Of a DNA stretch of 64,000 bases, positions 1-57,356 are shown piece after piece. Numbering within the stretch: the first letter of the stretch is position 1; every line of letters begins with the position of its first letter. The stretch is taken from NCBI GenBank assembly GCA_003153155.1, contig PLWV01000019.1, positions 1,137-65,136 of the forward strand. Reading direction: 5' to 3'. Source of the stretch: Gallionella sp. (lineage in GTDB: Bacteria > Pseudomonadota > Gammaproteobacteria > Burkholderiales > Gallionellaceae). Below the pieces are notes generated by a model. It was not told the origin of the DNA and searched no databases. It saw only the letters and a program-made list of their open reading frames with translations. A program made the position numbers and the translations under genes.

Positions 1-1006
1 TGGCCCAGGCGCCATGCACGAAACTCTGGTCTATCTTGAGTTCATCGAAGGGAATGTCGCGCAACTGGGCCAGCGAAGAATGCCCGGTGCCAAAATCGTC
101 TATGGATAATTCGAATCGCTTCAGGCGCAGCCGGGTCAGGATCTCGAGCGGTGCGCGCGCGTCCAGCATCAACCGGCTTTCCGTCACCTCCAGCACCACG
201 CTATGCGGCGACACACCCGCTGCGGCTGCCTGTGCGGCGACAAAATCCGCGAAATCCAGCGCAGCCAGATTATCCATGGATACATTGATCGCCACCTGCA
301 GCATCAGTCCCGCTTCCTCCCATCGCCTGATCTGGGCCAATGCACCGTCCAGCACCGCGCGGGTCAGGTCGTCGATCAGGCCGTGCGCCTCTGCCACGCC
401 GATGAACTGATCTGGAAACACCATCCCATCCTGCGGGTGCCGCCAGCGCACCAGGGATTCTGCGCCCGCCACTACACCCGTGGCGACCACCACTTTGGGC
501 TGGTAGTAATTGACCAGCTCGCCATTGGCGATGGCGGCGCGCACCTTGTCCGCAGCATAAATTTTTTTCGCCGCAATTTTTTTCGCCGCACCGCAGGGGC
601 CGTCTTGCGCCAGTGCCGTCCACTTTTCCAGCAACGACGCCAGCCCTTCCGGCGTGGCTGGCTTGTGCAGGTGGCCCAGCATCGGAATCTTATGCGCCCG
701 CACCAGCTTCTCGACAGACTGCTGCATGCGTTCATCTTCTCCGCTCACCAGAATGAGAGCACCAGCATAATGGTGCTCGACCAGGCGGCGCGCGAATTCG
801 ACCCCATCCATCTCCGGCATGTTGAGATCCAGCAAAATCAAATCCGGCGAGCGGTCTGGGTCATCAACCTGCTCCAGCGCGGCGCGTCCGCTGTCGAAGG
901 TGCTGACCGAGGTATAGCCGAGGTTCGCCAAAATGCGGGCCAGCAGCTTGAGCATGAATGGCTCGTCGTCGAGCACCAGAATCCTGATGGCGAATTTTTT
1001 CGGCAT
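1..1006 (-). CDS. REC-EAL response regulator / c-di-GMP phosphodiesterase (3' end runs off the window)
   Basis: Hand translation (absent from the ORF track): MPKKFAIRILVLDDEPFML...LILLDLNMPEMDG...YYQPKV...GAESLVRW...LEVTES...IDDFGTGHSSL...ELKIDQSFV. The EAL motif is the ESL variant. Confidence 0.9.
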   Translation of the reverse strand, partial: MPKKFAIRILVLDDEPFMLKLLARILANLGYTSVSTFDSGRAALEQVDDPDRSPDLILLDLNMPEMDGVEFARRLVEHHYAGALILVSGEDERMQQSVEKLVRAHKIPMLGHLHKPATPEGLASLLEKWTALAQDGPCGAAKKIAAKKIYAADKVRAAIANGELVNYYQPKVVVATGVVAGAESLVRWRHPQDGMVFPDQFIGVAEAHGLIDDLTRAVLDGALAQIRRWEEAGLMLQVAINVSMDNLAALDFADFVAAQAAAAGVSPHSVVLEVTESRLMLDARAPLEILTRLRLKRFELSIDDFGTGHSSLAQLRDIPFDELKIDQSFVHGAWA

Positions 1007-1051
1007 GGTCTTCTTCCTTTTCTTGCGGTTCTCTCCAAAAGGGGAGCGCGC

Positions 1052-3739
1052 CTATAACGAATCCAGATAGTTGTTTACGGCGGACATTTCCGCCTCGAAG
1101 CGGGATAGCAGCGCGGTCAATGCTTGGATCTGTCCAGCCTTGCCCGCCTGTTCCATTTCGGCGCACAACTCTCCCAGCGCCAGCGCGCCCACCGAACGCG
1201 CAGAGGATTTGAGTTTATGCGCCGCCGCCGCCACTGCCGCTGTATTGCATGCGGCGCAGGCAGTGCGCAATTGCGCCGCAATTTTGTCTGCGCTGATGCG
1301 GAAGTCATGCAAAAACTCGGCTAAGGTCGCCTCGTCATCACCCACTAATTTCTTGAGCACGTTTACATCTACCGGCGAGGATGACGCGGCGAGAGCAGAT
1401 TTTAATTGGATGGGCGCGGACTCGGCGGCAATGCGCAGCCATTTTTCCAGCATCTCTTTCAGTTTGACCAGTTGCGCCGGCTTGCTTAAATAGCCATCCA
1501 TACCGACCGCAAGGCAGTGTTCGGCCTCGCCCTTAAGGACATTGGCGGTGAAGGCGATGATAGGCGTGCGTGGTTTGCCGGTTTTGCCGGTATCGCTTTC
1601 ACTGGCTCGAATGATCGCAGTCAATTCATATCCGTCCATCTCCGGCATGTGCAGGTCGGTGATCAGCATGCCGTAATCGCCGCTCTGCCACAATTCCAAT
1701 GCCTCGCGGCCATTGTTGATGATGTCGGCAGTATGACCGAGCAACTTGAGTTGTTGCAGGATGACTTTCTGGTTGATCTCGTTGTCTTCGGCAACCAGGA
1801 TCAGGCTGCCCCGCCGGAGCGCATCCTCGCGCGACAGTGGCACGGGCGCCAACCTGGCGCCACTGGACAGGTCGATCAGGACTTGTTTTTTGATCCGTCC
1901 GGCGGCAATCGCCACCGCTTCCAGAAATACCTTGCGGTGCATGGCCTCAGCGTCCAGAGTAACCTGATCGGCGGCTTCGACCCGGCACTGCCGGCGTTTG
2001 CCGCGCCCGATGACAACAAAACGAACATCCGACCCGGTTCGGGCACAGGCGGCGGTGCGCAATGCATCCAGCAGCGATGGAGCACCCGTAGTATCTATGA
2101 CCACAACGCACAATCCGGGCGGCCAGCTGGAGATCCATTGCCCGGCAGCGTCCCTGTCCATTACCCGCTCGACTATCGCACCGTCATGCGCGAGATAGAC
2201 GGCCATGTCGTCTGCCAGACTATCCCCACCGCCCACCACCAGACAGCACAATCCGGCGATCGGCGAGGGCTGATCATCGGCTTCCGGATTTTGCGCCGGC
2301 AGTTCGAATGACAGGCGCACGCTGAACATCGAGCCTATGCCCGGTTCGCTCTGCACCGATATTTCGCCGTCCATTATGTTGGCCAACTGGCTGCTGATGA
2401 CCAGCCCCAGCCCGGTGCCGCCGAAATTCCGGGTGGTGGACGAGTCGGCCTGGGAAAAGGGAGTGAACAGCTTGGCTTGGGTCGCTGCATCAATACCGAT
2501 GCCGTTGTCGGACACGCTGAATACCACCATCACCTTCCCCGGTGAGCCCCTGTTCTCTGGTGCGACCCGGATCGCCCGTGTGACGCGCATCGACACACGC
2601 GCTTGCCTGCCCTGCCCGGTGGAAAACTTGATGGCGTTGTTCGCCAGGTTGACCAGTATCTGGCGCAGCCGCCCGGGGTCACCCATAAGAAGTGCGGGCA
2701 GGGTCGGATCGGTAAACAGGGTCAGTTCCACCGCTTTTTTCCGGGCCATGTGATCCAGTGCATCGCACGCCCCTTCCACCACGTCGGCGATGTTCATGGG
2801 CAGGCTTTCAACCTGAAGCTTGCCGGCCTCGATCTTGGAAAAATCGAGAATATCGTCAATCACGGCAAGCAGGGCGTATGCCGAATCGTGGATGATGTTG
2901 GACATCTCCATCTGCTGGGGATTGAGGCTGCTCTGTTGCAGCACATCGACCATGCCGATCACGCCGTTCATCGGGGTGCGTATCTCGTGGCTCATGGCGG
3001 CAAGGAAGGCCGACTTGGCTTGGTTAGCCTGTTCAGCATCGCGCCGGGCTTGCTCCAGATCGGAGGTGCGTGATGCCACTTTGTTTTCCAGCTCTTCGTT
3101 GAGTTGGCGTAGCGACTCCTCCGCCAGCTTCTGGTCTTCGACCACACTAAGCAGCGCCCGGCGTGATTGATTGGCAGCGGCCAGCAACTCCCGCGCCGAC
3201 TTTTCGGAAGCGACGATGGCCTCGCTGCGCTTTTGCTCAGTCAGATCGGTTGCCACCAGGCAGAAAGCATCAGGCATCCCGGTGATGAGCAGGTTGCTCA
3301 CCGAAAGCTGGACCGGCACCCGTGTGCCATCACTGGCGGTAAGTTCAAGCTGCTCACGGTGTTTTTCAGCTGCGCCTTTGCTCAACAGAGATTGAAGAAT
3401 CTGCCGACTGTCGGGCGCAATCCAGATGTGAATTGAAGCGCCGATCACATTTTCGAGCGGCATCTTGAGCATCTCGGCAAAGCGCCGGTTGGCATACAAA
3501 ATCACACCCTCCGCCGTCATGGTCAGCGCGCCTTCGTTCATATTCTCGATTAATGTACGGTAGGATTGATCGGCACCCTTGAGCGTAAAAAGCTGCGAAC
3601 CGACCTCGCCCGAGACGAACATCGCGTCCACCTCGCCACTGCGAATGGCGCGCAAAGTCTCTTTGGCTTCGTCCAGTTGTGCGCGCAGGTCTTCCAGTTC
3701 TAGCTGGCATTGCTCCTGGGTTGTTGGATTATTTTGCAT
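1052..3739 (-). CDS. Hybrid sensor histidine kinase (PAS-HisKA-HATPase-degenerate REC-REC-Hpt)
   Basis: H-box [11 protein letters not shown]; N/G boxes [22 protein letters not shown]; [14 protein letters not shown]; Hpt AHKLKSSA. Start overlaps the kaiB stop (TAATG). Confidence 0.93.
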
Positions 3740-4050
3740 TACGCGTTCTTTCGCAAATCCAGCCCAACCAGCACGCGCTCGGTATTCGACATATCCCCGA
3801 TGATGCGGCGCAACGGGTTCGGAAGTTTTCTGATCAGCGTTGGCACGGCGATGATCTGCTCGTCCTGCGCCAGTTGTGGCTGCTGGTAGAGATCAATTAC
3901 CTTCAGCTCATAGCGCCCTTGCAGATTTTCCTCGCAGATTCTTTTAATATTGGTGATCGCGTTAGCAGATTTCGGCGACGTTCCGGCAACGTACAGCCGC
4001 AGGATATAGCGATTCGATTCTGCTTTGGGCTGGGCGGGGTTCGTTTTCAT
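3739..4050 (-). CDS. kaiB: KaiB family protein (103 aa)
   Basis: [12 protein letters not shown]...[36 protein letters not shown]. The ATG at 4050 overlaps the kaiC TGA; the longer ORF-track call is a spurious 5' extension. Confidence 0.93.
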
Positions 4051-5837
4051 TTCGATCCCCTTTTTTGTTTGTTCGCTGTCACATCCGCATTGCGGCTCAG
4101 CCCCATGTCCACACGTCCTTGCACTAATTGCGCTTTCTCCGCTTTTTCCTGCCCGATGATTTTCACCGACGCGATCTCTTCCACCGCAAACTCGGCGCGC
4201 AACACGGCGATTTGTGCTTCCAGCGTCGTGCGCTTGCGTTCCAGCTCGATCCGCCGCAACTCCACTTCCTGATCGCGGATCATCAACGCGGCTTTCTCTT
4301 GCGCCTCTTGCGTCAATCGCGCCGAACCGGTCAGCACGCCACTCACACCGACGTACACATCGCGCAATTCCACGCCGTGATCGGTCAGCAGGAACTCGCG
4401 AATCTGGTTCGAGTGCGCCATGCCGCGCGATTTCATGATGTACAAGCCGCGATTGCGCTCGCCACCAATTTCGATGTCCCTCACCAACAGCCATGTGTCG
4501 ATCAGGGACGAAATGGCAACTTCGCTTTGTTCGAGCACTCCGCTGCTTGATGTTAAGCTGGTGAACAAGCCGGTGATCTGATTCGTTTTCAAAAAATCTA
4601 TCAGCCTTGTCAACATCGATTTGACTTCGATCTCATTGCCCCCGATGACAAAACTGTTCAGCGGATCCAGAATCACCACCTGCGGTTTGAACGTGTTGAT
4701 CAATTTGTGCTTCGTGATCAGATGCGTTTCCAAGCCCGCAGACGAGGGGCGGTCCGCATAAATCTGCAACAGCCCTTTTGTCACCCACACTTCCAGGTCA
4801 ATCCCGATGGAACGCATGTTGCGCATGATCTGGCTGGGAGATTCCTCGAAGGCGAAATAGATTACGCGCTCGCCGCGACGGCAGGCGGCCTCGGCAAAGT
4901 GTGCCGCGAGACTGCTCTTGCCGGTACCCGCCGTGCCGGAGATAAGCACGCTGCTGCCCCGGAAAAAGCCCTTTCCGCCCAGCATCGCGTCGAGGCGCGG
5001 GATGCCGGTAGAAGCGCGTTCGCTGGAGGCAGTGTGCTGCAAGCCCATCGACGTGACCGGCAGCACCGAAATGCCATCTGCGTCGATCAGAAACGGATAC
5101 TCGTTGGTGCCGTGGGTCGAGCCGCGATACTTGGCCACGCGCAACCGCCGCGAGGAGGTCTGCTCGCTCACGCGATGGTCGAGCACGATGACGCAGTCGG
5201 AAACGTATTCTTCCAACCCCTGGCGCGTCAGCATCCCATCACCGCGTTCGCCGGTGATGATGGCCGTCACGCCCCTATCCTTCAGCCAGCGAAACAGGCG
5301 GCGCAGTTCGGCGCGCAGGATGGCCGGGTTGGGCAAGCCGGAGAACAGCGTCTCGATGGTATCCAGCACCACGCGCTTCGCGCCGATGGAATCAATGGCT
5401 GACCCCAAGCGGATGAACAACCCTTCCAGATCGTATTCGCCGCTTTCTTCGATTTCGCTGCGCTCGATATACACAAAATCCACCACGATCTTTTTGTGCG
5501 CGATCAGGTCTTTCAAGTCGAAACCGAGCGAAGCGACGTTCTGGGTCAGGTCTTTGGCGGTCTCTTCGAAAGCCATAAACACGCCCGGCTCGTTGAACTC
5601 TGTCGCGCCCCGCACCAGAAACTCCATCGCGAGCAGCGTCTTGCCGCAGCCCGCGCCGCCGCACACCAGCGTCGGCCTGCCTTTGGGCAATCCGCCGCCG
5701 GTGATTTCGTCCAGCCCCTGAATGCCGGTCGGCGATTTGGGTAGTTGCGGCCTCGATTTTTGTTCTGGCCTGGATTTTTGCTTTGTCCTGGATTTTTGTT
5801 CTGACTGGGATTTTTGTTTTGGCTTGGGCTTGGTCAT
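4047..5837 (-). CDS. kaiC: KaiC family double-domain ATPase/kinase
   Basis: Two RecA-like domains ([11 protein letters not shown] and [11 protein letters not shown]), ISSLIDTW at the phosphosite position, [15 protein letters not shown]-terminal coiled-coil tail. Confidence 0.95.
5755..5825 (-). repeat. 18-bp tandem repeat (~4 units) encoding QKSxxE hexapeptides at the KaiC N-terminus
   Basis: Protein reads [24 protein letters not shown]; the + strand shows recurring GATTTTTG every 18 nt. Confidence 0.8.
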
Positions 5838-5840
5838 GAT

Positions 5841-8543
5841 TTATTCCTCTATTGGGTCTTGAGATTCAGCACTGGGGTAGCGCGGATGTTTGCCGGTTTT
5901 GCCCAGCAAATCGTTCACTTCATGCTTGAGGTCAAGGATGCGCTCCTCTCGACCCGAGGTTACCTCGTGCCAGCGGCGCAGTTCCTCGATCTGTTCGGCC
6001 TGCTTGACTTCGGTCTGCTTGCGCTCGGTGATGTCTTCGCCGATGCTTGCCGTTCCGATCACATCGCCGTCTCCCGAGCGCAGCACCGAATGGTTCCAGC
6101 GTATGAGCCGACGCTCGCCAGAACGGGTAAGTATCTCGCTTTCGTAATGCCTTGCTTCTGGTTTATTGAGGATGAGTTCCGCGAAAACCTTTTTTTTCTG
6201 TTTGGCAATTTCGGGCGGCACGAAAAGCTCTACCCAGTTTCGCCCGATAATTTCCTCGTATTTCCAACCAGTCAGGCGGAGCAGAAACTCGTTGCAGTAG
6301 GTTATCCGTTCTTCGCTGTCACGCATTACTGAAACCAGTTCCACATTTTCCAGCATGTCGCTAAAGCGACGCTCGCTTTCGCGTAGCTCCAGATTGATGC
6401 GGGATATTTCCTGTACAGCCATCTTTATGTCATTAATATCGGTGCAGGTGCCAAACCATTTGAGGATATTGCCGTCGGCATCTAGCAGAGGCACACCACG
6501 CACCAGCCACCAGCGGTAAATTCCATCTGCGCGACGCAAGCGGCTTTCGATCGAATAAATGCCGCGCCCCGTCACTGCTAGCTGCCAAGCATCCCATGTA
6601 CGCTGCTGGTCGTCCGGATGGAATGGCTTGTTCCACCCGTGACCCAGGCTTTCCTCAAGGGTGAGTCCCGTGTAATCCATCCATTGCTGGTTGAAATAAA
6701 TGTTCCAGCCATCCGCGCGGGTGATCCAGACAATTTGCGGCATGGCTTCGGCCAGCGTGCGGAATTCTGCCTCGCTCTTGCGCAAATCTTCCTCCGCCAG
6801 CTTGCGCTCGGTAATATCGCGCGCGATGCCCAGCACGCCGACCAGCTTGCCTCCGGGATCGTACATCGGCGTTTTGATAGCTTCCAGCAGGGCACGATGA
6901 CCATCGTCGGCGAAGACGACCCATGCTTCGGGTTCGATGCTGGGTTTGTTTGCTGCCATTGCTATGCGGTCGTGCTCGCGGAAGAAGTCCGCCAGTTCCT
7001 TGTCCACAAAATCGTAATCGGTTTTGCCGACGATGTCCGCTTCCTTGGCACCATAGAAACGCTCGAACATCGGGTTGCAACTCACGTAAACGCCGTTCTC
7101 GTCTTTCAGCCAAATCATGTCAGGTATGGTTCCCACCAAGGTGCGCAAACGGGTTTCTTTCGCGGCCAAGGCCAGCTCCATTTGCATGCGCTCGTTCACG
7201 GCAAAGTTGAGTCTGAATATCACGGCCAGAAAAATCATCAGGCTGGTAAACGTGCCGATGAAGATGATGAGGTATGAGAACCGGGACATACTTTCCGATT
7301 CCTGTTTCAATTGCTGGATGAGTTGGTGATGCTCGCTTTTAATCTGATCGTATGTGATACGGAAGTTGTCCAGCAAGCCTTCTCCATACCTGATCATGTT
7401 GTTGCGGATAGCGTCGGTCATGCTGGTTTGCCTGGCATCAATGACTTGCTGAAACCACTGGAGTTGCGCCTTGGCCTGAACTTCGATCCGGGCGAACTGC
7501 TGTTGTTGATGCGGGTTGCTGGCGGTGAGTTTGCGCAGTGCGTCCAGATTCACGTTGCTGTTGGCTTTGGCCTCAAGATAGTGGGTCTTGAACTGTTCGT
7601 CGCCGGTGATGACGTAGCCACGAGTGTAGGTTTGGGCATCGATAATTTCGATCAGAATATTTTCAATATAGTCCTGCGCTTCTTCGCTATACGCTATCTT
7701 GCGGTTCGTTTCGCCCAGCCAGAATTGGCTCCGGTTGGTGTTGAAGCCGATGAGCACCAGCACTGCCATGCCGCAGGCAAACGCCGCCGTGGTATTCCTG
7801 CTGAGCGACCACTGCAAGACATCCGGCTGCCAGCTAATTGCAATGACGGCCATGCCCAGCATCGCGAACAATAGGGACGTGTGCATCGCCATGATGGTGA
7901 GGCCAAACCAGCCATAGGCGCCTAGACCCGGTGTGGGATAGGACAGCATCGCCGCCAGCGCGAGGGTCGTCACCAGCAGGCCGAGGCTCACCGACGCAAG
8001 CGCAGTCCAGCGGGTCTGGTGCGAACTGCCGGTGATCCACAATGCCGCAGCCAGCAAGACGAAACTCAAGGCCGTCTCCGGTGCCATCCGCCCCGGATAC
8101 GATGTGCCCACCGTGCCGTTCGGCTCGATGAACAACCACTGGTCTATGCCGGGATTCCAACCGAAGACATATTCACCCAGCGACAGCAGGCCGATCAGGC
8201 CAACCAGCAACCCGCAAAGACGGGCGAGGCGAAATAACAAGGTTGAGAATTGCACCCGCAGGGGGTAGGCCGTGCGGTTCCCGTAGCCGAAGCTACGACC
8301 GCTACGCTCCGGATTGAACGTTGCGGGTGGGCGGGCAGTCAACAACAGCGCGATCCCCGTCAGGATGAAACAGACGGCGGTGTTCGCCTTCATGGCAACC
8401 CAGCCCGGCAAGACGCTCTTCAGTGTGACAATATCGAATGTCCAGCCGACCAGTACCATGGCGCCCACAACCACCGACAGAAGCGCAGCCCATGATGCGA
8501 GTTTCCGCGCCAGCACTGCAGGGTGGGTGTGGTCAGTTCTCAT
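5841..8543 (-). CDS. Membrane sensor: multi-TM, CHASE3-like, three PAS/PAC domains, no catalytic output domain
   Basis: Several TM helices; DAQTYTRGYVITGD..F..HY (CHASE3-like); three PAS/PAC units ending RDITERK, TDINDIK, EDITERK; ends ~45 aa after the last PAS. Confidence 0.85.
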   Translation of the reverse strand: MRTDHTHPAVLARKLASWAALLSVVVGAMVLVGWTFDIVTLKSVLPGWVAMKANTAVCFILTGIALLLTARPPATFNPERSGRSFGYGNRTAYPLRVQFSTLLFRLARLCGLLVGLIGLLSLGEYVFGWNPGIDQWLFIEPNGTVGTSYPGRMAPETALSFVLLAAALWITGSSHQTRWTALASVSLGLLVTTLALAAMLSYPTPGLGAYGWFGLTIMAMHTSLLFAMLGMAVIAISWQPDVLQWSLSRNTTAAFACGMAVLVLIGFNTNRSQFWLGETNRKIAYSEEAQDYIENILIEIIDAQTYTRGYVITGDEQFKTHYLEAKANSNVNLDALRKLTASNPHQQQQFARIEVQAKAQLQWFQQVIDARQTSMTDAIRNNMIRYGEGLLDNFRITYDQIKSEHHQLIQQLKQESESMSRFSYLIIFIGTFTSLMIFLAVIFRLNFAVNERMQMELALAAKETRLRTLVGTIPDMIWLKDENGVYVSCNPMFERFYGAKEADIVGKTDYDFVDKELADFFREHDRIAMAANKPSIEPEAWVVFADDGHRALLEAIKTPMYDPGGKLVGVLGIARDITERKLAEEDLRKSEAEFRTLAEAMPQIVWITRADGWNIYFNQQWMDYTGLTLEESLGHGWNKPFHPDDQQRTWDAWQLAVTGRGIYSIESRLRRADGIYRWWLVRGVPLLDADGNILKWFGTCTDINDIKMAVQEISRINLELRESERRFSDMLENVELVSVMRDSEERITYCNEFLLRLTGWKYEEIIGRNWVELFVPPEIAKQKKKVFAELILNKPEARHYESEILTRSGERRLIRWNHSVLRSGDGDVIGTASIGEDITERKQTEVKQAEQIEELRRWHEVTSGREERILDLKHEVNDLLGKTGKHPRYPSAESQDPIEE

Positions 8544-8699
8544 TATGGATTATGATCATCCTCATCAAGACTGTGCCCTCAATAATGTCCGGTTCACTGA
8601 ATTACCCATTGAGAAAACTGCTACCACGCAAAGCTCTATTCTAGAATAGGCCCAAGTACAAGTAGGGTCAATTCAATTTTGCAATGCGCATCCGCATCC

Positions 8700-8824
8700 T
8701 CAATATCGGCAGTCGCCGCCCAGATACGCTCTATAGCACACGCGCCGCTTCCAGACGCGCTCGACCGCGCGCCAGTCGATATCGCCTTGTTGGTCTTTTG
8801 CGGGGTGGTCTTGGGGGTGCTCAT
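8700..8824 (-). pseudogene. 5' remnant of a second CheW-type gene
   Basis: ATG at 8824 with an AAGGGA-like RBS. IDWRAVE, RLEAARV and AIERIWA lie in three different frames and join into an N-terminus I recall for the long CheW that follows cheR-TPR in such clusters (not searched). Confidence 0.55.
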
Positions 8825-8859
8825 GGCTGCATTTCCCTTATTCTGAAAAAACAGTTGGC

Positions 8860-8985
8860 CACTAGAGAACACAGAGTTCACAGAGAAAAACAATTGGTTG
8901 CCGTTAATAGCAATCCCATCCATCTGGTGAATATGAAAAATATGTGGAACTCGCTTCATCTCTGTGTTCTCTGTGATCTCTGTGG
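8860..8985. repeat. Inverted pair of 9-bp tandem repeats (CACAGAG.. / ..CTCTGTG)
   Basis: cactagagaa-cacagagtt-cacagagaa at 8860-8888 against tctctgtgt-tctctgtga-tctctgtgg at 8960-8985. Confidence 0.75.
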
Positions 8986-10343
8986 CTTGAATTAAGGTTT
9001 TTAGCCTTATGTGTTGCCGTCGCAGGCTGCGGCAAACTTGCCAGCAGGGACGTGACTATCTCAACCAGCCGCCCGGCAGTCAGCCCATCCGCTTCCGGCA
9101 GGGTTTCGTCCGGCGGATGCTTGCGCAACAGCAGCAGCACATTTCCGAAATAGCGCTGCGCCTCCCGGTAGCATCCCTGCGACTGATGCAGTTTCCCCAG
9201 TGCAAAATGAGCAAGCACGAACCGGGGTTCGAGATAGAGCGCGCGTATCAATGACTGAATGGCGTTATCGTGCAGCCCTTGTTCCTGCATAATTGTGGCG
9301 TTCAGATAATGGTGCACCGGGTTCAGCTTGTCGGCGGCGATCGCTTTTTCGCACCACTCCAGCGCCTCGCTGAGCCTGCCCTGATTGGCGCAATGACGCG
9401 CCATGAAGGCTGGTGCTTCATGTCTATCCTGGTTCGCTGCATCCGCCTTCTCGTTTTCAGATGGTAATTGGTACGACGGCGTATCTGCCATCTTCCGGTA
9501 TAACACCGCTTCCGGAAACTCGACCGGCGTGAACAAGGAAAGCAAGGTGGTCGAGGCTTCTGTCGGACTGACGATCAACCACCCGCCGTCAACCAGCGCG
9601 CGGTAAAAATTGCTGGTGACCTGTTTTGCCCGTTGCGCGGTGAAATACATCAGGACATTGCGGCAAAGAATCACGTCCATCGCGCTGGTGTTGTTAACCA
9701 GCGAGGGATAAATATCCTCGGCAAAATTGAGGTAGGAAAACGTGACCATCTTCCTGATACGAGGATGTATCTCGAAGCGTCCATCTGCCCTCTTGGTGAA
9801 ATACCGCTCGCGGAGCCAGACTGGCGCATCGCGAAACGACCATTCGCCGTACACGCCCTGTACCGCCTTGCGCAGAAATTTCGGGTTAAAGTCCGTCGCC
9901 AAAATGGTGACGTTCCAATCCTTGAGATCGGGAATGAGTCTGTCGAGCAGTATCGCGATGCTATAGGCTTCCTCGCCCGTGCTACAGCCCGCACTCCAGA
10001 TACGCAAACGCCGCTCATTCTGGCGGCGTGATTGCAACAGCATAGGGAGGATATGCTCCTCGAAAATTCCTAAACTCTGTTTCTCCCGGAAAAAATAGGT
10101 TTCCCCCACGCTCAGGTGGCTGGCGAGAACCTCGTTCATGTGCCGTGTCAGCGGGGCTGACAACAGCCAGCGTGCGCATGATTCCCGATCCGAAAAATTG
10201 AAATCCGGCGCTGCCGCCGCTATTCCCCGCTCGAGATCGCTCCAGCGTTCTTGCGGGAAATACAGACCCGTCTGCGCGGCGACAAATTCGCTCAGCTGTG
10301 ACAACAATGAAGAGGGAAATGTGGGGCGCATGTTTTGCCTCAA
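8904..10343 (-). CDS. cheR: CheR-type methyltransferase with C-terminal TPRs (WspC-like)
   Basis: VGETYFFRE, RIWSAGCSTGEEAYSIA, ATD, DVILCRNVLMYF, followed by TPR repeats. Confidence 0.92.
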   Translation of the reverse strand: MRQNMRPTFPSSLLSQLSEFVAAQTGLYFPQERWSDLERGIAAAAPDFNFSDRESCARWLLSAPLTRHMNEVLASHLSVGETYFFREKQSLGIFEEHILPMLLQSRRQNERRLRIWSAGCSTGEEAYSIAILLDRLIPDLKDWNVTILATDFNPKFLRKAVQGVYGEWSFRDAPVWLRERYFTKRADGRFEIHPRIRKMVTFSYLNFAEDIYPSLVNNTSAMDVILCRNVLMYFTAQRAKQVTSNFYRALVDGGWLIVSPTEASTTLLSLFTPVEFPEAVLYRKMADTPSYQLPSENEKADAANQDRHEAPAFMARHCANQGRLSEALEWCEKAIAADKLNPVHHYLNATIMQEQGLHDNAIQSLIRALYLEPRFVLAHFALGKLHQSQGCYREAQRYFGNVLLLLRKHPPDETLPEADGLTAGRLVEIVTSLLASLPQPATATHKAKNLNSSHRDHREHRDEASSTYFSYSPDGWDCY

Positions 10344-10828
10344 GAGGTTTCGAACGTCCGATTTTCCGGTGCCCGGTTTTCCAGCGCCTGGTCCAGAGAA
10401 CTTTCTTCTTCCAGCGAAAGAAATTTGTCCAGGTCGTGGATGAGGATCAAGCCATCTGTTAGTTTTACCACCCCTTTCACATACTCAACCTTGGGAAGGA
10501 TATTTTCTGTCGCGATCAGATTCTGCGCGGAACATGCGATGACATCCAGCACCGCGTCCGCCACCAGCGCAACAGGCCGTCGTGCCGTGTGCGCGACAAC
10601 CAGTTGGTCGGTCAGTGCAATCTCACGATCCGGCAGGCAAAAACGCCGACGCACATTGATAACCGGGATGACTTGCCCTTGGAAATTGACCACGCCAAGG
10701 ATGATGTCCGGTGCCTTAGGCAACGGGGTGATAGCCACCATGCGCACCACCCGATCCGCCGCAGGCAACGGCAGGGCGTAGCGTTGATCGTCCAGGGTAA
10801 AAATAACTAGGAAATCTGGCTTCTTCAT
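10340..10828 (-). CDS. cheW: CheW-like coupling protein
   Basis: FTLDDQRYALPL..DRVV..ITPLPKAP..ILGVVNFQGQVIPVINVR. Confidence 0.92.
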   Translation of the reverse strand: MKKPDFLVIFTLDDQRYALPLPAADRVVRMVAITPLPKAPDIILGVVNFQGQVIPVINVRRRFCLPDREIALTDQLVVAHTARRPVALVADAVLDVIACSAQNLIATENILPKVEYVKGVVKLTDGLILIHDLDKFLSLEEESSLDQALENRAPENRTFETS

Positions 10829-11041
10829 TGCAGCCCGGAGTGATGTTCAGGGATGACAAAATGGTCAGGCATTTGTCTGTCCTATCGCATCCCGCCCGCC
10901 TAACCAGCGTTACTCGAAATTGTACTTCATTCTTGAATCCGCGTTCATTAATAGAAGCCAGACCGCAAAGCAGCATGTGGGAGTCGCGTAAGCCTTGTAT
11001 GGCAAATCGCACCGCAGCAACTGTTCGCCGCTATGGACTCG

Positions 11042-11596
11042 CTACTCGCCCACCTCGATCAAGGATGCAAAAATCAGGTGACCATCAACCCGCATCGGTG
11101 GTCCGGCACGGTGTGCTTTGAAACCGGCATTGCGTAGCAATCGCTCGATGCCGAGCGGAGAAACGGTAATCAAGCGCTTCGCCCCATGTTTCGATGCGCA
11201 ATCTATGGCTCCCTGCAGTAAATCTATCGCAATATCCGATGACATCTGCCGTAACGGAGATTGATTGGGCGAGTTGAAATCGAGCGCAGCAAAGCGGGAA
11301 AGCTCCCAAATTTCAGGAGAGTTCGGCGGTATTGCACCGTTCAACAACTGGGGAAAAACTTCGGAGAGGAGATAAGGGTGTGTGGTCGGTAACAGCCGGG
11401 CGCAACCGCATACCTCGCCCTCGTCATCGCGCGCGACCACATAGACTGTGTCCGGCCGGTCGAATTGGTCCTGTTCCAGACCATCCGGCGCATGCAAATC
11501 CCAGCCCAGGTTTTCGACAAAGACCTTGTGCCGATAGGCTGCTACCTGTCGGTAAGTGCCCAGTAAACTGTCCGCAGTGCCTGAAATAATATTCAT
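11042..11596 (-). CDS. Acyl-homoserine-lactone synthase (LuxI family)
   Basis: YRHKVFVENLGW, EQDQFD, GCARLLPT..PYLL..VFP, WELSRF. Start placed at MNIISG (11596) rather than 11659. Confidence 0.93.
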   Translation of the reverse strand: MNIISGTADSLLGTYRQVAAYRHKVFVENLGWDLHAPDGLEQDQFDRPDTVYVVARDDEGEVCGCARLLPTTHPYLLSEVFPQLLNGAIPPNSPEIWELSRFAALDFNSPNQSPLRQMSSDIAIDLLQGAIDCASKHGAKRLITVSPLGIERLLRNAGFKAHRAGPPMRVDGHLIFASLIEVGE

Positions 11597-11663
11597 ACTC
11601 AACCCCCCAGAAAACCATAAAAACCGACGGGTTAATTTGAGCTTGCCAAACCGGTTCAAACAA

Positions 11664-11679
11664 CTGTCAACCTTGACAG
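11664..11679. promoter_or_regulatory. lux-box-like palindrome upstream of luxI
   Basis: CTGTCAA-CC-TTGACAG is a perfect 7-bp inverted repeat with a CTG-N10-CAG core, ~70 bp upstream of the luxI ATG. Confidence 0.8.
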
Positions 11680-11690
11680 GGATGAGGTAA

Positions 11691-12119
11691 TCATCTGCTG
11701 ATGGTGCTTAGCGTTTCCGTTTGCCAATGGAAGGTGTTCAGCCAGTCCACCAACATCGCCGTGGTTTGCGCTGGTCCGAGATCCTGGCCGTGTTGGTCCA
11801 CGAACATCAGGTTGCTTCCCGGTGTACCGGTTTGAATAAGGCGTGCCTTTCCTTGTGCGCCGGTTACTTCCCAGTCCCAGCCGATGCTGATCGCCGGTGT
11901 GCCATGACTTACCCATTCGGTGTAACCGGTGATGGTGGAGGAGTTAGCGCCGACCCCGCTGGCGATCGGCCGGTCTTCATCAATGCCGGAAAACAGGTGT
12001 ACCATTTCAAGCTGCTGAAACGATTCAACCGTCAGGCGGATATAGCCATCCCGAGATAAGATGGCCATTGTGGTGTACCCTTGCCGGGGTTGGCATGCTT
12101 GAAAGTAATGTAGTGTCAT
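11691..12119 (-). CDS. Small QS-linked protein, DUF4902-like (start may be at 12068)
   Basis: DGYIRL...HLFSGIDE...GYTEW...SIGWDW motifs; lies between luxR and luxI. Confidence 0.7.
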   Translation of the reverse strand: MTLHYFQACQPRQGYTTMAILSRDGYIRLTVESFQQLEMVHLFSGIDEDRPIASGVGANSSTITGYTEWVSHGTPAISIGWDWEVTGAQGKARLIQTGTPGSNLMFVDQHGQDLGPAQTTAMLVDWLNTFHWQTETLSTISR

Positions 12120-12188
12120 GGGATGCGTTAACCTGAAAGTTGTCGGATGAGGAAGTGGGATAATACTGGCGTCGGGCGTTTGACTATG

Positions 12189-12222
12189 CTGTCAAATCTA
12201 TCAGTGCTGTCAAATGTGACAG
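12189..12222. promoter_or_regulatory. Two tandem lux-box-like sites in the divergent luxR/DUF4902 promoter
   Basis: CTGTCAAATCTATCAG (12189-12204) and CTGTCAAATGTGACAG (12207-12222), both CTG-N10-CAG with an 18-bp period. An overlapping TTTGAC-N6-GTCAAA palindrome lies at 12179-12196. Confidence 0.6.
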
Positions 12223-12271
12223 GGAAGATTCAGGTGCCTGACCACGGCACCATCTTCACGGTGGAGGGAAA

Positions 12272-12986
12272 ATGAAAGCTTGGCAAGAAGAGCAAGTCCA
12301 GTTGCTGTTGAGTTGCGATTCTGCGGCGGATTCGTTTCAGCGTGTCACGGTGTTGGCGCGGGAGCTTGGTTTCGACTATTGCGCCTACGGCATTCGCATG
12401 CCGCTACCCATCTCCGCGCCCAGAACGGAGATGTTCAATAATTATCCGACTGATTGGCAAACATGCTATCAAGCACAGAGCTATCTTGTGGTTGACCCGA
12501 CCGTTGCGCAGGGTAGCCGTTCGACATTGCCCTTTGTTTGGTCTGATGAATTGTTTGCCTCGGCCCGTGATTTGTGGGAAGACGCCAGAGCTTACGGGTT
12601 GGAATACGGATGGGTGCAATCTTGCCGGGATGCGCAGGGCATCAGCGGCATGCTGACATTGGCGCGCGCTCAGGAAGATTTGTCAGCCAGCGAGTTGCGC
12701 GCCAAGACCCCGGAGATGAGTTGGTTGGCGCAAACGGCGCACTTCGGCATGGCGCGTTGCCTTGACGGCCAAGCTGCTGCCGGAAGCCGAGGTGACGCTT
12801 TCGAGCCGGGAGGTTGAAGTGCTGCGCTGGACGGCAGAAGGCAAGACCTCAAGTGAGGTGGCGGATATTTTGAGAATCGCTGAACGCACCGTCAATTTCC
12901 ACATCAATAACGCCATGGCTAAATTGAAAGCCAACAACAAGACTGCTGCGGCCATTCGAGCAGCGGTGTTGGGGCTGCTGTACTGA
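12272..12986 (+). pseudogene. LuxR-family AHL receptor split by a +1 frameshift at ~12760 (pseudogene or sequencing error)
   Basis: AHL-binding domain (NYPTDW..Y...DP...W...G.EYG) in one frame, HTH (LSSREVEVLRWTAEGKTS.E...ERTVNFH) in the next. Span 715 nt = 238 codons + 1. Confidence 0.85.
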
Positions 12987-13138: not shown

Positions 13139-13510
13139 TTATTCGAACGGATGGCGCAGCACGATGGTTTCGTCGCGATCCGGTCCGGTCGAAACCATAT
13201 CCACCGGCACAGCGCAGACTTGCGCAATACGTTCCAAGTAGTTGCGCGCGGCTTGCGGTAGATATTCATAACGCTTCGCTCCCACCGTGCCGCCGCTTCA
13301 ACCCGGCATTTCTTCGTACAACGCCTGGCAATCGGCCATGGCATCCGCACCCGCCGGCAGGATATCGCTGTCCAACTCCATTGATGCGATAGCCGACATC
13401 GATGCGCACGCTTTCCATGCCGTCCATCACGTCCAGCTTGGTGACACACAGACCGGATACGCCGTTGATCTGGATCGACCGCTTCAGTGCTGCCGCGTCA
13501 AACCGGCCGC
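13139..13510 (-). pseudogene. purA: 3' fragment of adenylosuccinate synthetase
   Basis: [28 protein letters not shown].../...YEEMPG*SGGTVG...[40 protein letters not shown]. Frameshift at ~13380, TGA in place of Trp at 13298-13300, no 5' part. Confidence 0.88.
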
Positions 13511-13924
13511 AACACTCATCGCGGCAATCTCGCGACTGATGGAGGAGTTCATCAGCATGGCAATGACATTCTGGTTATGTAAGGTTTTCAAGATGACGTA
13601 AATGTTGGTATCTGTCGTCTCGAATAAGGGATGTGAAATTCATCCTGGCAATTTCGGCGTAGTGTTCAAAGGGGCTGGATGCTGACGCACCTTATATACT
13701 TAACCCATTAACCAGAGTTGCACCTCGAACTTGGGGTGGCGGATATATTGGGAATCACTGAACGCACTGCCAATTTCCAGATTAATACCGCTGAGGTACT
13801 ACCGATGTGAATACCCGTTTCAAAAATAACATGCAACACGCCAAACCTCACCGGTGCGTCGCGGTACAAGGGGCGCACCAAAATTTATTTAGGCGATAAG
13901 TGAGAGGTTTGATAGAATGCGCGC

Positions 13925-14052: not shown

Positions 14053-14151
14053 CGTTTAGTAGTGTCAACCGAACAAATGTGCAGTGCGTTATAGGCACCG
14101 ACACGGTAGTGTCTTAAACGTTTATTAATCTACTAAAAATTGGAGTTCACC

Positions 14152-14379
14152 ATGAGCAAACTGTTATCCGTACTGATCGCTGCTGTATTCGCTGCTGTTT
14201 CTTTCACCGCTGTTGCTGCTGACGCGGCTCCAGCTAAGGCTGCTGCTCCTGCTGCCACTACTGCTGCTCCTGCCAAGGCAGAAACTAAGGCAGAAGAAAA
14301 GAAGGAAAAGAAAGCTAAGAAGGCTAAAAAGCACAAGAAGGCTAAGAAGGCTGCCGCAGAGAAGGCTGAAACTAAGTAA
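14152..14379 (+). CDS. Small exported Lys/Ala-rich, probably disordered protein (Asr-like composition)
   Basis: GGAG RBS, Sec signal MSKLLSVLIAAVFAAVSFTAVA-A, AAPAK and KKAKK repeats, own terminator. Confidence 0.85.
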   Translation: MSKLLSVLIAAVFAAVSFTAVAADAAPAKAAAPAATTAAPAKAETKAEEKKEKKAKKAKKHKKAKKAAAEKAETK

Positions 14380-14397
14380 TTTGTCACATGTTTGAAG

Positions 14398-14424
14398 AAG
14401 GCAGGGGTGACCCTGCCTTTTTTT
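14398..14424 (+). terminator. Rho-independent terminator
   Basis: AAGGCAGGG-GTGA-CCCTGCCTT followed by a T run. Confidence 0.85.
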
Positions 14425-14441
14425 ATTTGTAGAATACCAAT

Positions 14442-54947: not shown

Positions 54948-57356
54948 TTACTTGATACAAACTGCGCGTACCTGATGCATATCGGTAACGCCCTGCAGCA
55001 CCTTCTCCATGCCGTCTTGCTTCAACGTGTGCATCCCTTCGTCCAGCGCGATAGCCAATAACTCGGCAACCCGTGCATGTTCCTGAATGGCCCTCTTGAC
55101 AGGGTCGGTACCAATCAGCAATTCATGCAAGCCCACTCTCCCACGATAGCCGGTGCCGGAACATTTTTCACATCCAACCGGTCCATAGATCGTAAATTGT
55201 CCTTTGTCATCGGCAAACAACTTCCGCCACTCGGCATACAGAGCCTTCATCGCAGCAGCCGGATCTTTCTTCCAGGTCACGGTATTGACCAGTTCGGCGC
55301 TGTACTCATCCAGCATCGCTTTTATTTCATCGGCGGTTGCGGTATGCGGTTTCTTGCAATCGGCACATAAGCGTTTTGCCAAACGCTGCGCCAAAATGCC
55401 GAGCAGCGCATCGGCAAAGTTGAACGGATCCATACCCATATCCAGCAAGCGAATGATGGATTCCGGCGCGCTGTTGGTGTGCAGGGTGGCGAACACCAAG
55501 TGACCAGTCAGCGAGGCTTCGATACCGATGGACACGGTTTCCTTGTCGCGCATTTCACCGACCATAATCACGTCCGGATCGGCACGCAGAAAGGCGCGCA
55601 TGATGGTGGGAAAATCCAGCCCGGCCTTTTTGTTGATCTGCACTTGGCGCAGCCCCTTCTGGGTAATTTCCACCGGATCTTCGACGGTCCAGATCTTGGT
55701 GTCCGGCTTGTTGATGTATTTGAGGACGGAGTGCAGCGTGGTGGTTTTACCGGAACCGGTCGGACCGCACACGAAGAACAGCCCGTATGGCTTGCTGACC
55801 GTAGCTTTGACCAACTCTGAATTGCGCGCGGAGAAGCCCATCTTTTCCAATGGCAATGGCTCACCGGAGGCCAGAATACGCATCACCACATCTTCCACGC
55901 CGCCCTGCGAAGGAATGGTCGCCACACGCAGCTCGATATCCAGCGGGCCGAATTTCTTGAACTTGATCTTGCCGTCCTGCGGTTTGCGCTTCTCGGAAAT
56001 ATCCAGGTCGCACATGATCTTGATACGGGTGATCAGTGCGTTGCGATAAGTTGACGGCACTTCGATGTAGTTCATCAATGAACCGTCTTTGCGCACCCGA
56101 ATCTGCGTCTTGGCTTTGCCCGGTCCCGGTTCGATATGAATATCCGACGCGCCCATCCGGTAAGCATCTACGATGACCTTGTTGACCAGCTTGACCAATT
56201 CATTATCGGCGGCGGCGCTGACGTCCTCCTGGCTGACACCGGAGATTTCTTCTTCTTCTCCACCCAGGCTAGTCAACAAATCATCCATGGACGATTCATC
56301 GACTACCATGCCACCGCTACCATCTGAAACAGCGCCGCCACCATAAAACAAATCCAGGGTTTGCTTGAATTCGCGTTGCGAGCAAACCTTATAGACCAGC
56401 CGACTCTTGGAAAAAATGTTATTGACCACCCGCGAAGCCTGAATCCGCTCCGGATCAGTGGTCAAAATCATCAGCCCCTCCTGGGTTTCCTCGATTGGAA
56501 TCCAATGACTGCTTTCTACATACTCGCGTCTCAGGTTTTTCAACAACTCGGTAGGCTTGAGGCGATCGCTCCGGTATGGTTCGTAAGGGACTCCAAAAAA
56601 GCTGGACAGCGCCTTGCCCAAGGCGGCGACACTGACTTGAAATTCGTCTAGCAGCACCTCTTCGATGTCTATGCCCTTGCGCCGCGCGGTGCGCGTCGCC
56701 AATTCGAATTCCGCAGCAGAAAGTACCGCATCGGCAACCAGATAGTCATACTTGGTCTTGGTCGTGCTGCTTTGCTGACGCTGATGCTGGCGCAACGCCA
56801 CCGCCATGGTCTGCGCCAGTTCCTGCACGCCTTCTTCGATCATCGCCGCAAAAGGGACACCAGCCTTGTTATTGATGACCTGGATGACACCAACCAGATC
56901 GCCACTGGCTGCATCCAGAATCGGAGCGACCAGCATTTGCTTGGTACGGTATCCGGTGCGCTTGTCTACTTCCTTAAAAAAACGCAGATGCGCGCTGTAC
57001 TGCGCCAACTCTTTTTCATCGTAAACATCCTTGATGTTAAGCAGTTTTTTATGCATTGCCGCATAACCGGCAACGCTTTGCTCAGCGATGGGTAACTTGA
57101 GATCTTTGAAAGAATTGAGCCCGGTCTTGACCTTGGAAATAAGTGAGATATTGTCTTCACCCACGACATAGATGGTCAGCCGATCCGCATTGAACAGCGC
57201 GCAGATGTCCTTGCTGACCTCCAGCATGATTTCATCAACGTTACCGGTGGCGTGTATCTTATTGTTGACGTGATTGAGATTCTTGGTGAATTCGAGCCTG
57301 AGGCTCATATCACCGACATTGTTTGCTGCGCTATTGGTCGCCATTACTGTACTCAT
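54948..57356 (-). CDS. GAF-fused PilB/GspE-family secretion ATPase
   Basis: N-terminal GAF (GYRTKQMLVAPI...GVIQVINNK), Walker A GPTGSGKTTT, TVEDPVE, LRADPDVIMVGEMRD, TLHTN, Cys motifs CADC and CEKC. Confidence 0.92.
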   Translation of the reverse strand: MSTVMATNSAANNVGDMSLRLEFTKNLNHVNNKIHATGNVDEIMLEVSKDICALFNADRLTIYVVGEDNISLISKVKTGLNSFKDLKLPIAEQSVAGYAAMHKKLLNIKDVYDEKELAQYSAHLRFFKEVDKRTGYRTKQMLVAPILDAASGDLVGVIQVINNKAGVPFAAMIEEGVQELAQTMAVALRQHQRQQSSTTKTKYDYLVADAVLSAAEFELATRTARRKGIDIEEVLLDEFQVSVAALGKALSSFFGVPYEPYRSDRLKPTELLKNLRREYVESSHWIPIEETQEGLMILTTDPERIQASRVVNNIFSKSRLVYKVCSQREFKQTLDLFYGGGAVSDGSGGMVVDESSMDDLLTSLGGEEEEISGVSQEDVSAAADNELVKLVNKVIVDAYRMGASDIHIEPGPGKAKTQIRVRKDGSLMNYIEVPSTYRNALITRIKIMCDLDISEKRKPQDGKIKFKKFGPLDIELRVATIPSQGGVEDVVMRILASGEPLPLEKMGFSARNSELVKATVSKPYGLFFVCGPTGSGKTTTLHSVLKYINKPDTKIWTVEDPVEITQKGLRQVQINKKAGLDFPTIMRAFLRADPDVIMVGEMRDKETVSIGIEASLTGHLVFATLHTNSAPESIIRLLDMGMDPFNFADALLGILAQRLAKRLCADCKKPHTATADEIKAMLDEYSAELVNTVTWKKDPAAAMKALYAEWRKLFADDKGQFTIYGPVGCEKCSGTGYRGRVGLHELLIGTDPVKRAIQEHARVAELLAIALDEGMHTLKQDGMEKVLQGVTDMHQVRAVCIK

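Follow-up and report, generated by a model that had tools for sequence, protein, structure and literature searches.

At one end of a 64-kb stretch of DNA from Gallionella sp. (contig PLWV01000019.1; the whole stretch of 64,000 nucleotides is called the window below), an N-acyl homoserine lactone (AHL) quorum sensing (QS) locus, the remains of a chemosensory operon and the genes of a KaiBC timer with a cyclic di-GMP (c-di-GMP) output follow each other in a single block. All components belong to known kinds: the timer is a KaiBC system of the KaiC2 type with a kinase and c-di-GMP output, the AHL system is of the RsaM type and the chemosensory remnants are Wsp-like. We conclude, with a probability of roughly 0.75, that three units not made for each other have recently been joined in the block as a mosaic, in other words by a recombination accident and not as a circuit leading from quorum sensing to a clock. 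The first unit would be the RsaM-type AHL locus, with luxR divergent from rsaM-luxI and with lux boxes, whose receptor gene luxR is inactivated in this strain by a +1 frameshift. The second would consist of the first two genes of a Wsp-like operon (cheW and cheR-TPR) and a stub of its third gene. The third, a self-contained Kai cassette with five genes in about 9 kb, probably replaced the remaining 9.1 kb of the operon by illegitimate recombination. An earlier note on this DNA had suggested that AHL-dependent read-through could gate the Kai genes; at face value this would be the first genetic link between QS and a Kai timer, but the claim should not be propagated because the evidence shows a strain-specific cassette swap.

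Replacement of a chemosensory operon

The change can be followed by comparison with a sister strain, represented by contig OBLT010000329.1 (L089), which was recovered by a metagenome scan anchored on CheR. The luxR, rsaM, luxI and cheW products of L089 are 96-100% identical to the window proteins at the amino acid level, and the gene order is luxR (divergent), rsaM, luxI, cheW, cheR-TPR, a second cheW, CHASE3-MCP (methyl-accepting chemotaxis protein), cheA-REC, cheB and REC-PAS-GAF-GGDEF-EAL. This operon is a Wsp-like chemosensory pathway with c-di-GMP output. The same order is found in three further contigs (L087, L088 and L090), and the RNA sequencing runs X1-X3 carry it over the full 14.4 kb.

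In the blastn comparison with L089 the window strain was represented by contig L001, whose coordinates are converted as window coordinate = 15838 minus L001 coordinate. The flanks of the two strains are 95-98.5% identical. Between them, positions 11789-20899 of L089 (9.1 kb, starting midway through the second cheW and ending shortly before the end of the GGDEF-EAL gene) are replaced by positions 7131-16124 of L001 (9.0 kb), which corresponds to the window leftwards from 8707 plus 287 bp past the window edge. The incoming segment holds exactly a 164-nt leader (8544-8707), a sensor gene, kaiC, kaiB, a kinase gene and a REC-EAL gene, all on the minus strand.

Two remnants of the old operon show the direction of the change. 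Firstly, next to the left breakpoint (8707/8708) there is a 103-nt stub of the second, wspD-like cheW of the ancestral operon (8708-8810, minus strand), 86.7% identical to L089 11686-11788, which lies within the gene for the 243-residue CheW of L089; orf107 matches this second CheW at 50% amino acid identity. Secondly, just past the window edge there is an EAL stub of 93 codons, 98% identical to the 3' end of the L089 gene. Neither breakpoint was found to have repeats or mobile-element genes, which points to illegitimate recombination. The earlier note had cautioned that the adjacency might result from a deletion, given that the che operon is broken. A rearrangement did break the operon, but sequence was exchanged and not simply lost: the derivation of the block by deletion from an ancestor resembling contig L170, in which a Wsp-like operon is followed by a Kai cassette, was considered and rejected since the cassette is followed downstream by the EAL stub left over from the old operon.

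A complete Wsp-like set (MCP, two CheW, CheR, CheA-REC, CheB and a REC-linked c-di-GMP enzyme) is thus present in L089, while the window keeps only cheW (wspB-like; 10340-10828, minus strand; Pfam; 96-99% identical in L087-L090), cheR with TPR repeats (wspC-like; 8904-10343, minus strand; Pfam) and the cheW stub. The cheR gene of the window strain is itself altered. It has a 120-nt in-frame deletion in the TPR region (indel at 9415-9482 relative to L089), and its relatives match residues 1-444 of the protein only, the last ~35 codons having been rewritten by an inserted element into a foreign C-terminal tail. This element (8811-9022, 212 nt) overlaps the 3' end of cheR, is missing from L089, has 18-nt arms that are 94% complementary and forms a long hairpin (fold z = -2.5) with U-tracts on the transcribed minus strand. 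Segments of 23-160 nt with 84-100% identity to it were found in contigs L157-L162, all of them recovered solely via such matches; we therefore regard it as a small repeated element, similar to miniature inverted-repeat transposable elements (MITE) or repetitive extragenic palindromic (REP) sequences. The spacers cheR-cheW and cheA-cheB of L089 likewise have peaks in depth and numerous loose ends, a pattern that repeated elements give. The element, the cheW stub next to it, the altered C-terminus of CheR and the luxR frameshift described below had been overlooked in the earlier note.

With so much recent damage, i.e. the luxR frameshift, the cheR deletion and foreign tail, the cheW and EAL stubs, two small insertions and a purA fragment, one might suspect that the adjacency is an assembly chimera or that the Kai cassette is a decaying, non-functional insertion. 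However, among 17 KaiC-identical contigs from JGI, ENA and Logan all those that are sufficiently long have the same neighbours, and a single Logan contig spans 5634-11224. Since the junctions are identical in these independent assemblies of different samples, the arrangement is not an assembly artefact. In addition, all five cassette genes are intact, have their catalytic motifs and are tightly coupled, so we give this explanation hardly any weight.

The Kai cassette

The minus-strand genes of the block, nine in number, occupy positions 1-12119, and luxR is divergent; both the co-orientation and the gene identities given in the earlier note agree with the Pfam matches and open reading frame (ORF) calls. 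Within the cassette the genes are closely packed, again as had been described. The stop codon TAA of the sensor gene (5841-8543, minus strand) is followed after 3 nt by the ATG of kaiC (4047-5837, minus strand), as read from the sequence, kaiC and kaiB (3739-4050, minus strand) overlap in ATGA (-4 bp), kaiB and the kinase gene (1052-3739, minus strand) overlap in TAATG (-1 bp), and the distance from the kinase gene to the REC-EAL gene (<1-1006, minus strand) is 45 nt. The 3' end of the latter is cut by the start of the window; in L001 the protein has 426 residues. The cassette recurs as a unit in other contigs. In contig L169 the order sensor-kaiC-kaiB-kinase is found with the same 3-nt gap and with 4-nt and 1-nt overlaps (amino acid identity 48, 80, 84 and 75%, respectively), and L170 (GCA_023259055.1, JAHFQZ010000001.1) has the REC-EAL gene (74%), the sensor gene, a gene for a second PAS protein, kaiC (83%), kaiB (85%) and the kinase gene (66%). 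The kinase of L170 has the same architecture as the window kinase, and orthologues of the sensor lie upstream of kaiC in both contigs.

KaiC (596 residues) has two KaiC domains (Pfam PF06745, two stretches) and matches the KaiC of Rhodobacter sphaeroides (PDB 8DBA) with 677 bits over residues 32-582, C-terminal coiled coil included (query residue 582, where the alignment ends, corresponds to chain residue 554). The Ser-Ser site is retained, AISSLIDTW being aligned with GLSSLMDGW (S413/S414). The protein thus shows the features of the KaiC2 type, i.e. two RecA-like domains that both have a Walker A motif and catalytic glutamates, the Ser-Ser site, a coiled-coil extension of ~50 residues and an adjacent kaiB, whose product has 103 residues (Pfam KaiB, E = 2.8e-29). 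No member of the KaiA family is found among the called genes of L001, the sequence covered being ~22 kb in addition to the window. In R. sphaeroides the C-terminal extension lets KaiC autophosphorylate without KaiA, and KaiB and the ATP/ADP ratio drive an hourglass (PMC10076222).

The protein encoded after kaiB is a hybrid kinase (PAS-HisKA-HATPase-REC-Hpt; Pfam) with an N-terminal coiled coil and PAS domain. We scanned 51 such proteins, the window kinase and 50 proteins following kaiB in other genomes: PAS domains are present in 42 of them, and 25 are histidine kinases. An N-terminal coiled-coil/PAS module that corresponds to residues 1-190 or so of the window kinase (3170-3739) is conserved in these proteins, and it is kept downstream of kaiB (L007-L086) whatever the output may be, HisKA or HisKA_3 kinase, GGDEF-EAL or HD-GYP. 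Because the nearest relatives fuse the same module to other outputs, namely PAS-GGDEF-EAL (L009), PAS-GAF followed by an EAL protein (L007) and PAS-GAF-HD-GYP (L010, L012), it is probably the reader of the KaiB-KaiC state and a candidate docking module for KaiB/KaiC. In Pseudomonas putida, a PAS domain of a kinase was proposed as the contact to KaiC (bioRxiv 10.1101/2022.01.26.477890). Turnover of c-di-GMP recurs as an output among the closest relatives examined. A kaiC-kaiB context followed by a kinase or a GGDEF/EAL protein has been noted earlier (PMC3164672).

The REC-EAL protein (Pfam Response_reg and EAL) matches RocR (PDB 3SY8) over its full length (E = 4e-54), and the EAL motifs can be aligned one by one: ESL (EVL in RocR), EVTES/EITET, DDFGTG/DDFGAG, KID/KLD, EGVE and QGY. 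The H-box, the receiver Asp and the Hpt motif HKLKSS of the kinase are visible in its translation, so that the domains expected of a kinase-Hpt and REC-EAL pair are in place. The REC-EAL protein is probably a c-di-GMP phosphodiesterase. The pathway from a KaiA-less KaiBC timer through a kinase to c-di-GMP hydrolysis, put forward in the earlier note, is plausible, as relatives have kaiC-kaiB followed by a PAS-kinase, a PAS-GGDEF-EAL or a PAS-HD-GYP protein and the reading agrees with known gene contexts.

The sensor is a membrane protein with several transmembrane helices, a CHASE3 domain, three PAS domains and a conserved C-terminal helical tail, without an output domain (Pfam). Its N-terminal membrane-CHASE3 family is found in metagenome-assembled genomes (MAGs) named Gallionella, Sideroxyarcus, Sulfuricellaceae and others, fused to many outputs. 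The tail, EELRRW..GRE.R[IV]L[DE]LK.EVN.LL..PRYPSAESQ, is highly conserved upstream of kaiC in the window (5841-6040), L011 (9815-10030), L169 (11400-11625) and L170 (11790-12024 and 14260-14488); it is more diverged in L059 and L083, and in L007 a 21-codon remnant precedes kaiC. In 2.26 Mb of loci it occurs only at the C-termini of proteins encoded upstream of kaiC, and all of these genes are immediately upstream except that of the L170 sensor, which is one gene further away. The tail is not exclusive to Kai systems, this idea being rejected because two tail-bearing database proteins (L171, L172) are encoded in neighbourhoods without kaiC. Timers of the KaiC2 type may have a dedicated input partner in the CHASE3-PAS membrane protein with its helical tail; the role of this protein as an input or modulator of the timer is the least supported step of the scheme and we put it forward with corresponding caution.

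The quorum sensing locus

The luxI gene (11042-11596, minus strand; Pfam Autoind_synth) encodes an AHL synthase of 184 residues that is 100% identical to LuxI of L089; its nearest named relatives are found in a Nitrosomonadales MAG (83%) and Sulfuriferula (64%). Upstream of it lies a gene for a DUF4902 protein (11691-12119, minus strand; Pfam E = 5.6e-37) that matches BCAM1869 of B. cenocepacia (PDB 4O2H) and by homology would be a negative regulator of AHL quorum sensing of the RsaM kind. A perfectly palindromic lux box, CTGTCAACCTTGACAG, is located at 11664-11679, 68-83 nt upstream of the luxI ATG, and a second site with one mismatch (12207-12222) together with an adjoining degenerate copy occupies 12189-12222 in the divergent region between luxR and rsaM. 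Lux-box matches in the window exceed the shuffled expectation (0.2 expected by chance), and the palindromes occur only at luxI and in the luxR/rsaM divergent region, with none near cheW or the sensor gene. A third lux-box-like site (31092) lies inside an ORF without a family match and was set aside as a probable chance occurrence.

The receptor gene, in turn, is a pseudogene (12272-12986, plus strand, as aligned to the intact luxR of L089). At 12762 the sister strain reads GCCTGAC and the window strain GCCTTGAC, and the additional T causes a +1 frameshift that splits the gene into a 181-residue autoinducer-binding ORF and a separate HTH ORF. The luxR of L089 is intact (237 residues), and besides the extra T only four substitutions separate the two copies, so the inactivation is very recent. 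The split was also called in the independent assemblies L001 and L002, and the extra base is missing from the contigs of the sister-strain RNA runs. No further LuxR or LuxI gene was found in the 64-kb window. The synthase, the position of the DUF4902 gene and the lux box of an RsaM-type AHL system are therefore all present, but an intact LuxR is not.

Next to luxR two irregular segments were noticed. A 384-bp insertion (13466-13849) is absent from the sister strain and contains, at 13732-13791, a 60-nt copy of the HTH-coding part of luxR (12854-12913) with 85% identity. At ~13139-13285 (L001 2553-2699) there is a 48-codon fragment of adenylosuccinate synthetase (PF00709) amid short broken ORFs, likely a purA pseudogene remnant; this segment aligns to L089 as well, at 98.5% identity.

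Proposed read-through from luxI

According to the central proposal of the earlier note, an AHL/LuxR-activated luxI promoter would read through cheW and cheR into the Kai genes, so that cell density gates the timer and its c-di-GMP output. Gene linkage was surveyed in two sets of loci. In 80 genome loci with a KaiC 62-82% identical to the window protein, neighbours within 10 kb were scored: luxI, rsaM, luxR and cheW were found in 0/80, although kaiB and a following PAS signalling protein are kept at nearly all of them. In 76 metagenome loci anchored on CheR, kaiC or kaiB was found in 0/76, and the cheW-cheR pair recurs in most. The note had itself named a lack of conserved linkage in relatives as evidence that would speak against its proposal, and this is what both sets show; the sister strain likewise has the QS locus without the cassette.

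The course of the block between luxI and the sensor gene is mixed in this respect. The genes are all co-oriented, a perfect lux box precedes luxI, the arrangement is stable in several samples, and the 213-nt luxI-cheW spacer (10829-11041, minus strand) folds no better than shuffled sequences (z = -0.02), without a canonical terminator, as stated in the earlier note. A looser scan of this spacer gives only one weak candidate, a 9-bp stem with a 25-nt loop followed by UUUU (10905-10854), which falls into the strain-specific part (the centre, 10862-11018, is unlike the sister strain). Between cheR and the sensor gene, a gap of 360 nt contains the inverted-repeat element with its U-tract hairpin and the cheW stub. 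No lux-box-like site precedes cheW or the sensor gene, and a Rfam scan of the whole window gave nothing at gathering thresholds. With a frameshifted luxR, no other LuxR gene in the window and no linkage elsewhere, the gating of the Kai genes by AHL is not supported, and we consider read-through of this kind very unlikely. As luxR is broken, a working link from QS to Kai in the window strain is in our view highly improbable.

The RNA runs add little on this point. At an identity of at least 98%, the runs that contain the region (X1-X4) have matches to the cassette only as scraps of 18-35 nt. The contigs of the RNA runs have a flat depth that covers both strands and intergenic DNA, as carry-over of DNA would give, and they are therefore uninformative on operon structure. 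The same flat depth is seen in X5-X7, which contain the window strain.

Genes downstream of related quorum sensing loci

A broader form of coupling deserves separate discussion. Here, in a lineage resembling Nitrosomonadales, transcription from the luxR/rsaM-luxI locus would feed whatever c-di-GMP or chemosensory cassette lies downstream of luxI. The Kai genes would have taken the place of the Wsp-like operon and the neighbourhood would be under selection, the connection being disabled in this strain by the luxR frameshift. LuxI relatives with 74-100% identity are indeed followed by co-oriented signalling genes, and the luxR/rsaM-luxI arrangement is kept in the relatives with 74-86% identity. 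Downstream of luxI we find the Wsp-like operon ending in GGDEF-EAL (L089), REC and REC-PAS-GGDEF-EAL (L164), PAS-GAF-HD-GYP (L163, a Nitrosomonadales MAG), REC, REC, CheW, MCP and CheA (L165, L167), and a GGDEF-EAL gene ~7 kb away (L166); L163, L164 and L166 have no terminator-like site between luxI and the next gene. A different and only distantly related luxR/luxI pair (LuxI 26% identical) separates cheR from the second cheW in L101 (8742-10146), in a che cluster of the same family; tblastn suggests the same placement in L108 and L139, and the Kai cassette of L170 lies next to a Wsp-like operon. On the other hand, the loci are few and not independent of each other, c-di-GMP genes abound in these genomes, and the comparison has no genome-wide background. 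Two distant relatives, P0046 (66%) and Sulfuriferula L168 (64%), lack such downstream genes, and upstream of luxR the gene content varies from locus to locus, as it would if a mobile locus had landed at various sites; the flat, double-stranded depth of the RNA-run contigs, resembling DNA carry-over, does not help this explanation either. We regard selected coupling as the less likely explanation by some distance, if the most serious competitor of the mosaic, and a general transcriptional link from this QS clade to downstream second-messenger cassettes as similarly doubtful.

It is tempting to go one step further and to see in luxR/rsaM-luxI a transcriptional hub in front of interchangeable cassettes (Wsp-like, REC-GGDEF-EAL, HD-GYP, Che-like and Kai), with cell density setting the Kai-c-di-GMP pathway wherever luxR is intact. 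If true, quorum sensing and a Kai timer would here be linked for the first time, but we think this unlikely. As a separate observation, the luxR/luxI pair of L101 is followed by genes for a TonB-dependent receptor and a YfiR-like protein.

Neighbouring features

Two other parts of the window may be mentioned. At 14100-14430 there is a small plus-strand gene (from 14152, MSKLLSVLIAAVFAAV...) with a signal-peptide-like start and an alanine-rich product. It has length polymorphisms between strains (joints skip 95 and 137 nt), its depth is ~3-6x that of its neighbours in X5 and X6, ~2x in X1 and X7 and not raised in X2-X4, and the strongest terminator-like hairpin of the region (14394-14423) comes after it. 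Further away, a fusion of GAF and T2SSE (type II/IV secretion ATPase) adjoins a CHASE2-adenylate/guanylate cyclase (54948-57356 and 58264-60486), which adds more genes of second-messenger signalling to otherwise housekeeping surroundings (proS, valS, leuA, ilvB-like).

Discussion

If the cassette works as its parts suggest, KaiC would autophosphorylate without KaiA by means of its extended C-terminal coiled coil, KaiB would reset it, and the two proteins together would form an hourglass that tracks the ATP/ADP ratio. The CHASE3-PAS membrane protein, translationally coupled to kaiC, could give the environmental input. The conserved coiled-coil/PAS module at its N-terminus may let the kinase sense the state of KaiB-KaiC, and phosphate would then pass from HisKA to REC, Hpt and finally to the REC-EAL protein, whereby c-di-GMP hydrolysis would be altered. 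We infer that the cassette is transcribed independently of the genes in front of it; like the biochemical steps, this is deduced from gene content and arrangement.

Some of our observations do not fit easily with a mosaic of unrelated units. The luxI-cheW spacer has no canonical intrinsic terminator by consensus scan, and the leader of the cassette offers little to support a promoter of its own: it has a sigma-70-like site, TTGACC-17-TATTCT (8671-8643), but this is a consensus match only, and no leader sequence is conserved with the leaders of L169 or L170, so that no promoter or operator can be supported by conservation. No window-type cassette is seen in the RNA runs with the region (X1-X4), which have the sister arrangement, and this leaves room for read-through. 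Finally, L170 (1-19301) also has a Wsp-like operon beside its Kai cassette, an intact one (with cheA, cheB and a REC-GAF-PAS protein) that directly precedes the REC-EAL and Kai genes in the same orientation, and c-di-GMP or chemosensory genes often come after relatives of the QS locus; hence some functional reason for the neighbourhood is conceivable.

What remains is, in the first place, a swap of c-di-GMP modules in one chromosomal slot, from a Wsp-like pathway to a Kai hourglass with an EAL phosphorelay, which is resolved to the breakpoints and cleanly dated. In the second place, a compact five-gene Kai cassette is now seen in three contigs of uncultured, probably betaproteobacterial, bacteria, and it offers a way, open to experiment, in which a KaiA-less timer could act on c-di-GMP, something so far described mainly from gene context. 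A lead that might be of interest for future studies is that second-messenger signalling genes tend to lie downstream of the AHL loci in this clade.

Comparison with known systems

It is useful to compare the three units with the systems they resemble. The L089 operon is similar to the Wsp pathway (WspA-F, WspR) in as much as CheW, CheR-TPR, CheW, MCP, CheA-REC, CheB and a REC-containing c-di-GMP enzyme are encoded in one operon. The differences are that the ancestral output is REC-PAS-GAF-GGDEF-EAL and not REC-GGDEF, that the gene order is unlike that of Pseudomonas wsp, and that the window retains only cheW, a damaged cheR and the cheW stub. The QS locus corresponds to the RsaM/TofM-type AHL systems of Burkholderia and Pseudomonas fuscovaginae: it has a LuxI synthase, a palindromic lux box upstream of luxI, and a DUF4902 gene that separates luxR from luxI and whose product matches BcRsaM (PDB 4O2H). 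The luxR of the window strain, in contrast, is a pseudogene, and its host, going by the names of the LuxI relatives, is probably an uncultured betaproteobacterium close to Nitrosomonadales.

The output branch of the cassette recalls another known pair. In the RocS1-RocR system of Pseudomonas aeruginosa, a hybrid kinase with Hpt signals to a REC-EAL phosphodiesterase. The window pair shares the HisKA-HATPase-REC-Hpt architecture of the kinase and the full-length RocR match of the response regulator, but the sensing part of the window kinase is the Kai-associated PAS module and not the periplasmic domain of RocS1.

The timer itself is closest to the KaiBC hourglass of R. sphaeroides (KaiC2 subgroup), with which it has in common a double-domain KaiC, the Ser-Ser site, the coiled coil, kaiB and a PAS kinase that follows. 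It differs in the CHASE3-PAS membrane protein translationally coupled upstream of kaiC and in its hybrid kinase with REC and Hpt followed by REC-EAL. As in the published kaiC-kaiB contexts (PMC3164672), a PAS-containing signalling protein comes after kaiC-kaiB, and the c-di-GMP enzymes of the relatives agree with that description; in the window, however, the link to c-di-GMP would be indirect, running through an Hpt phosphorelay to a separate REC-EAL protein instead of a PAS-GGDEF-EAL fusion.

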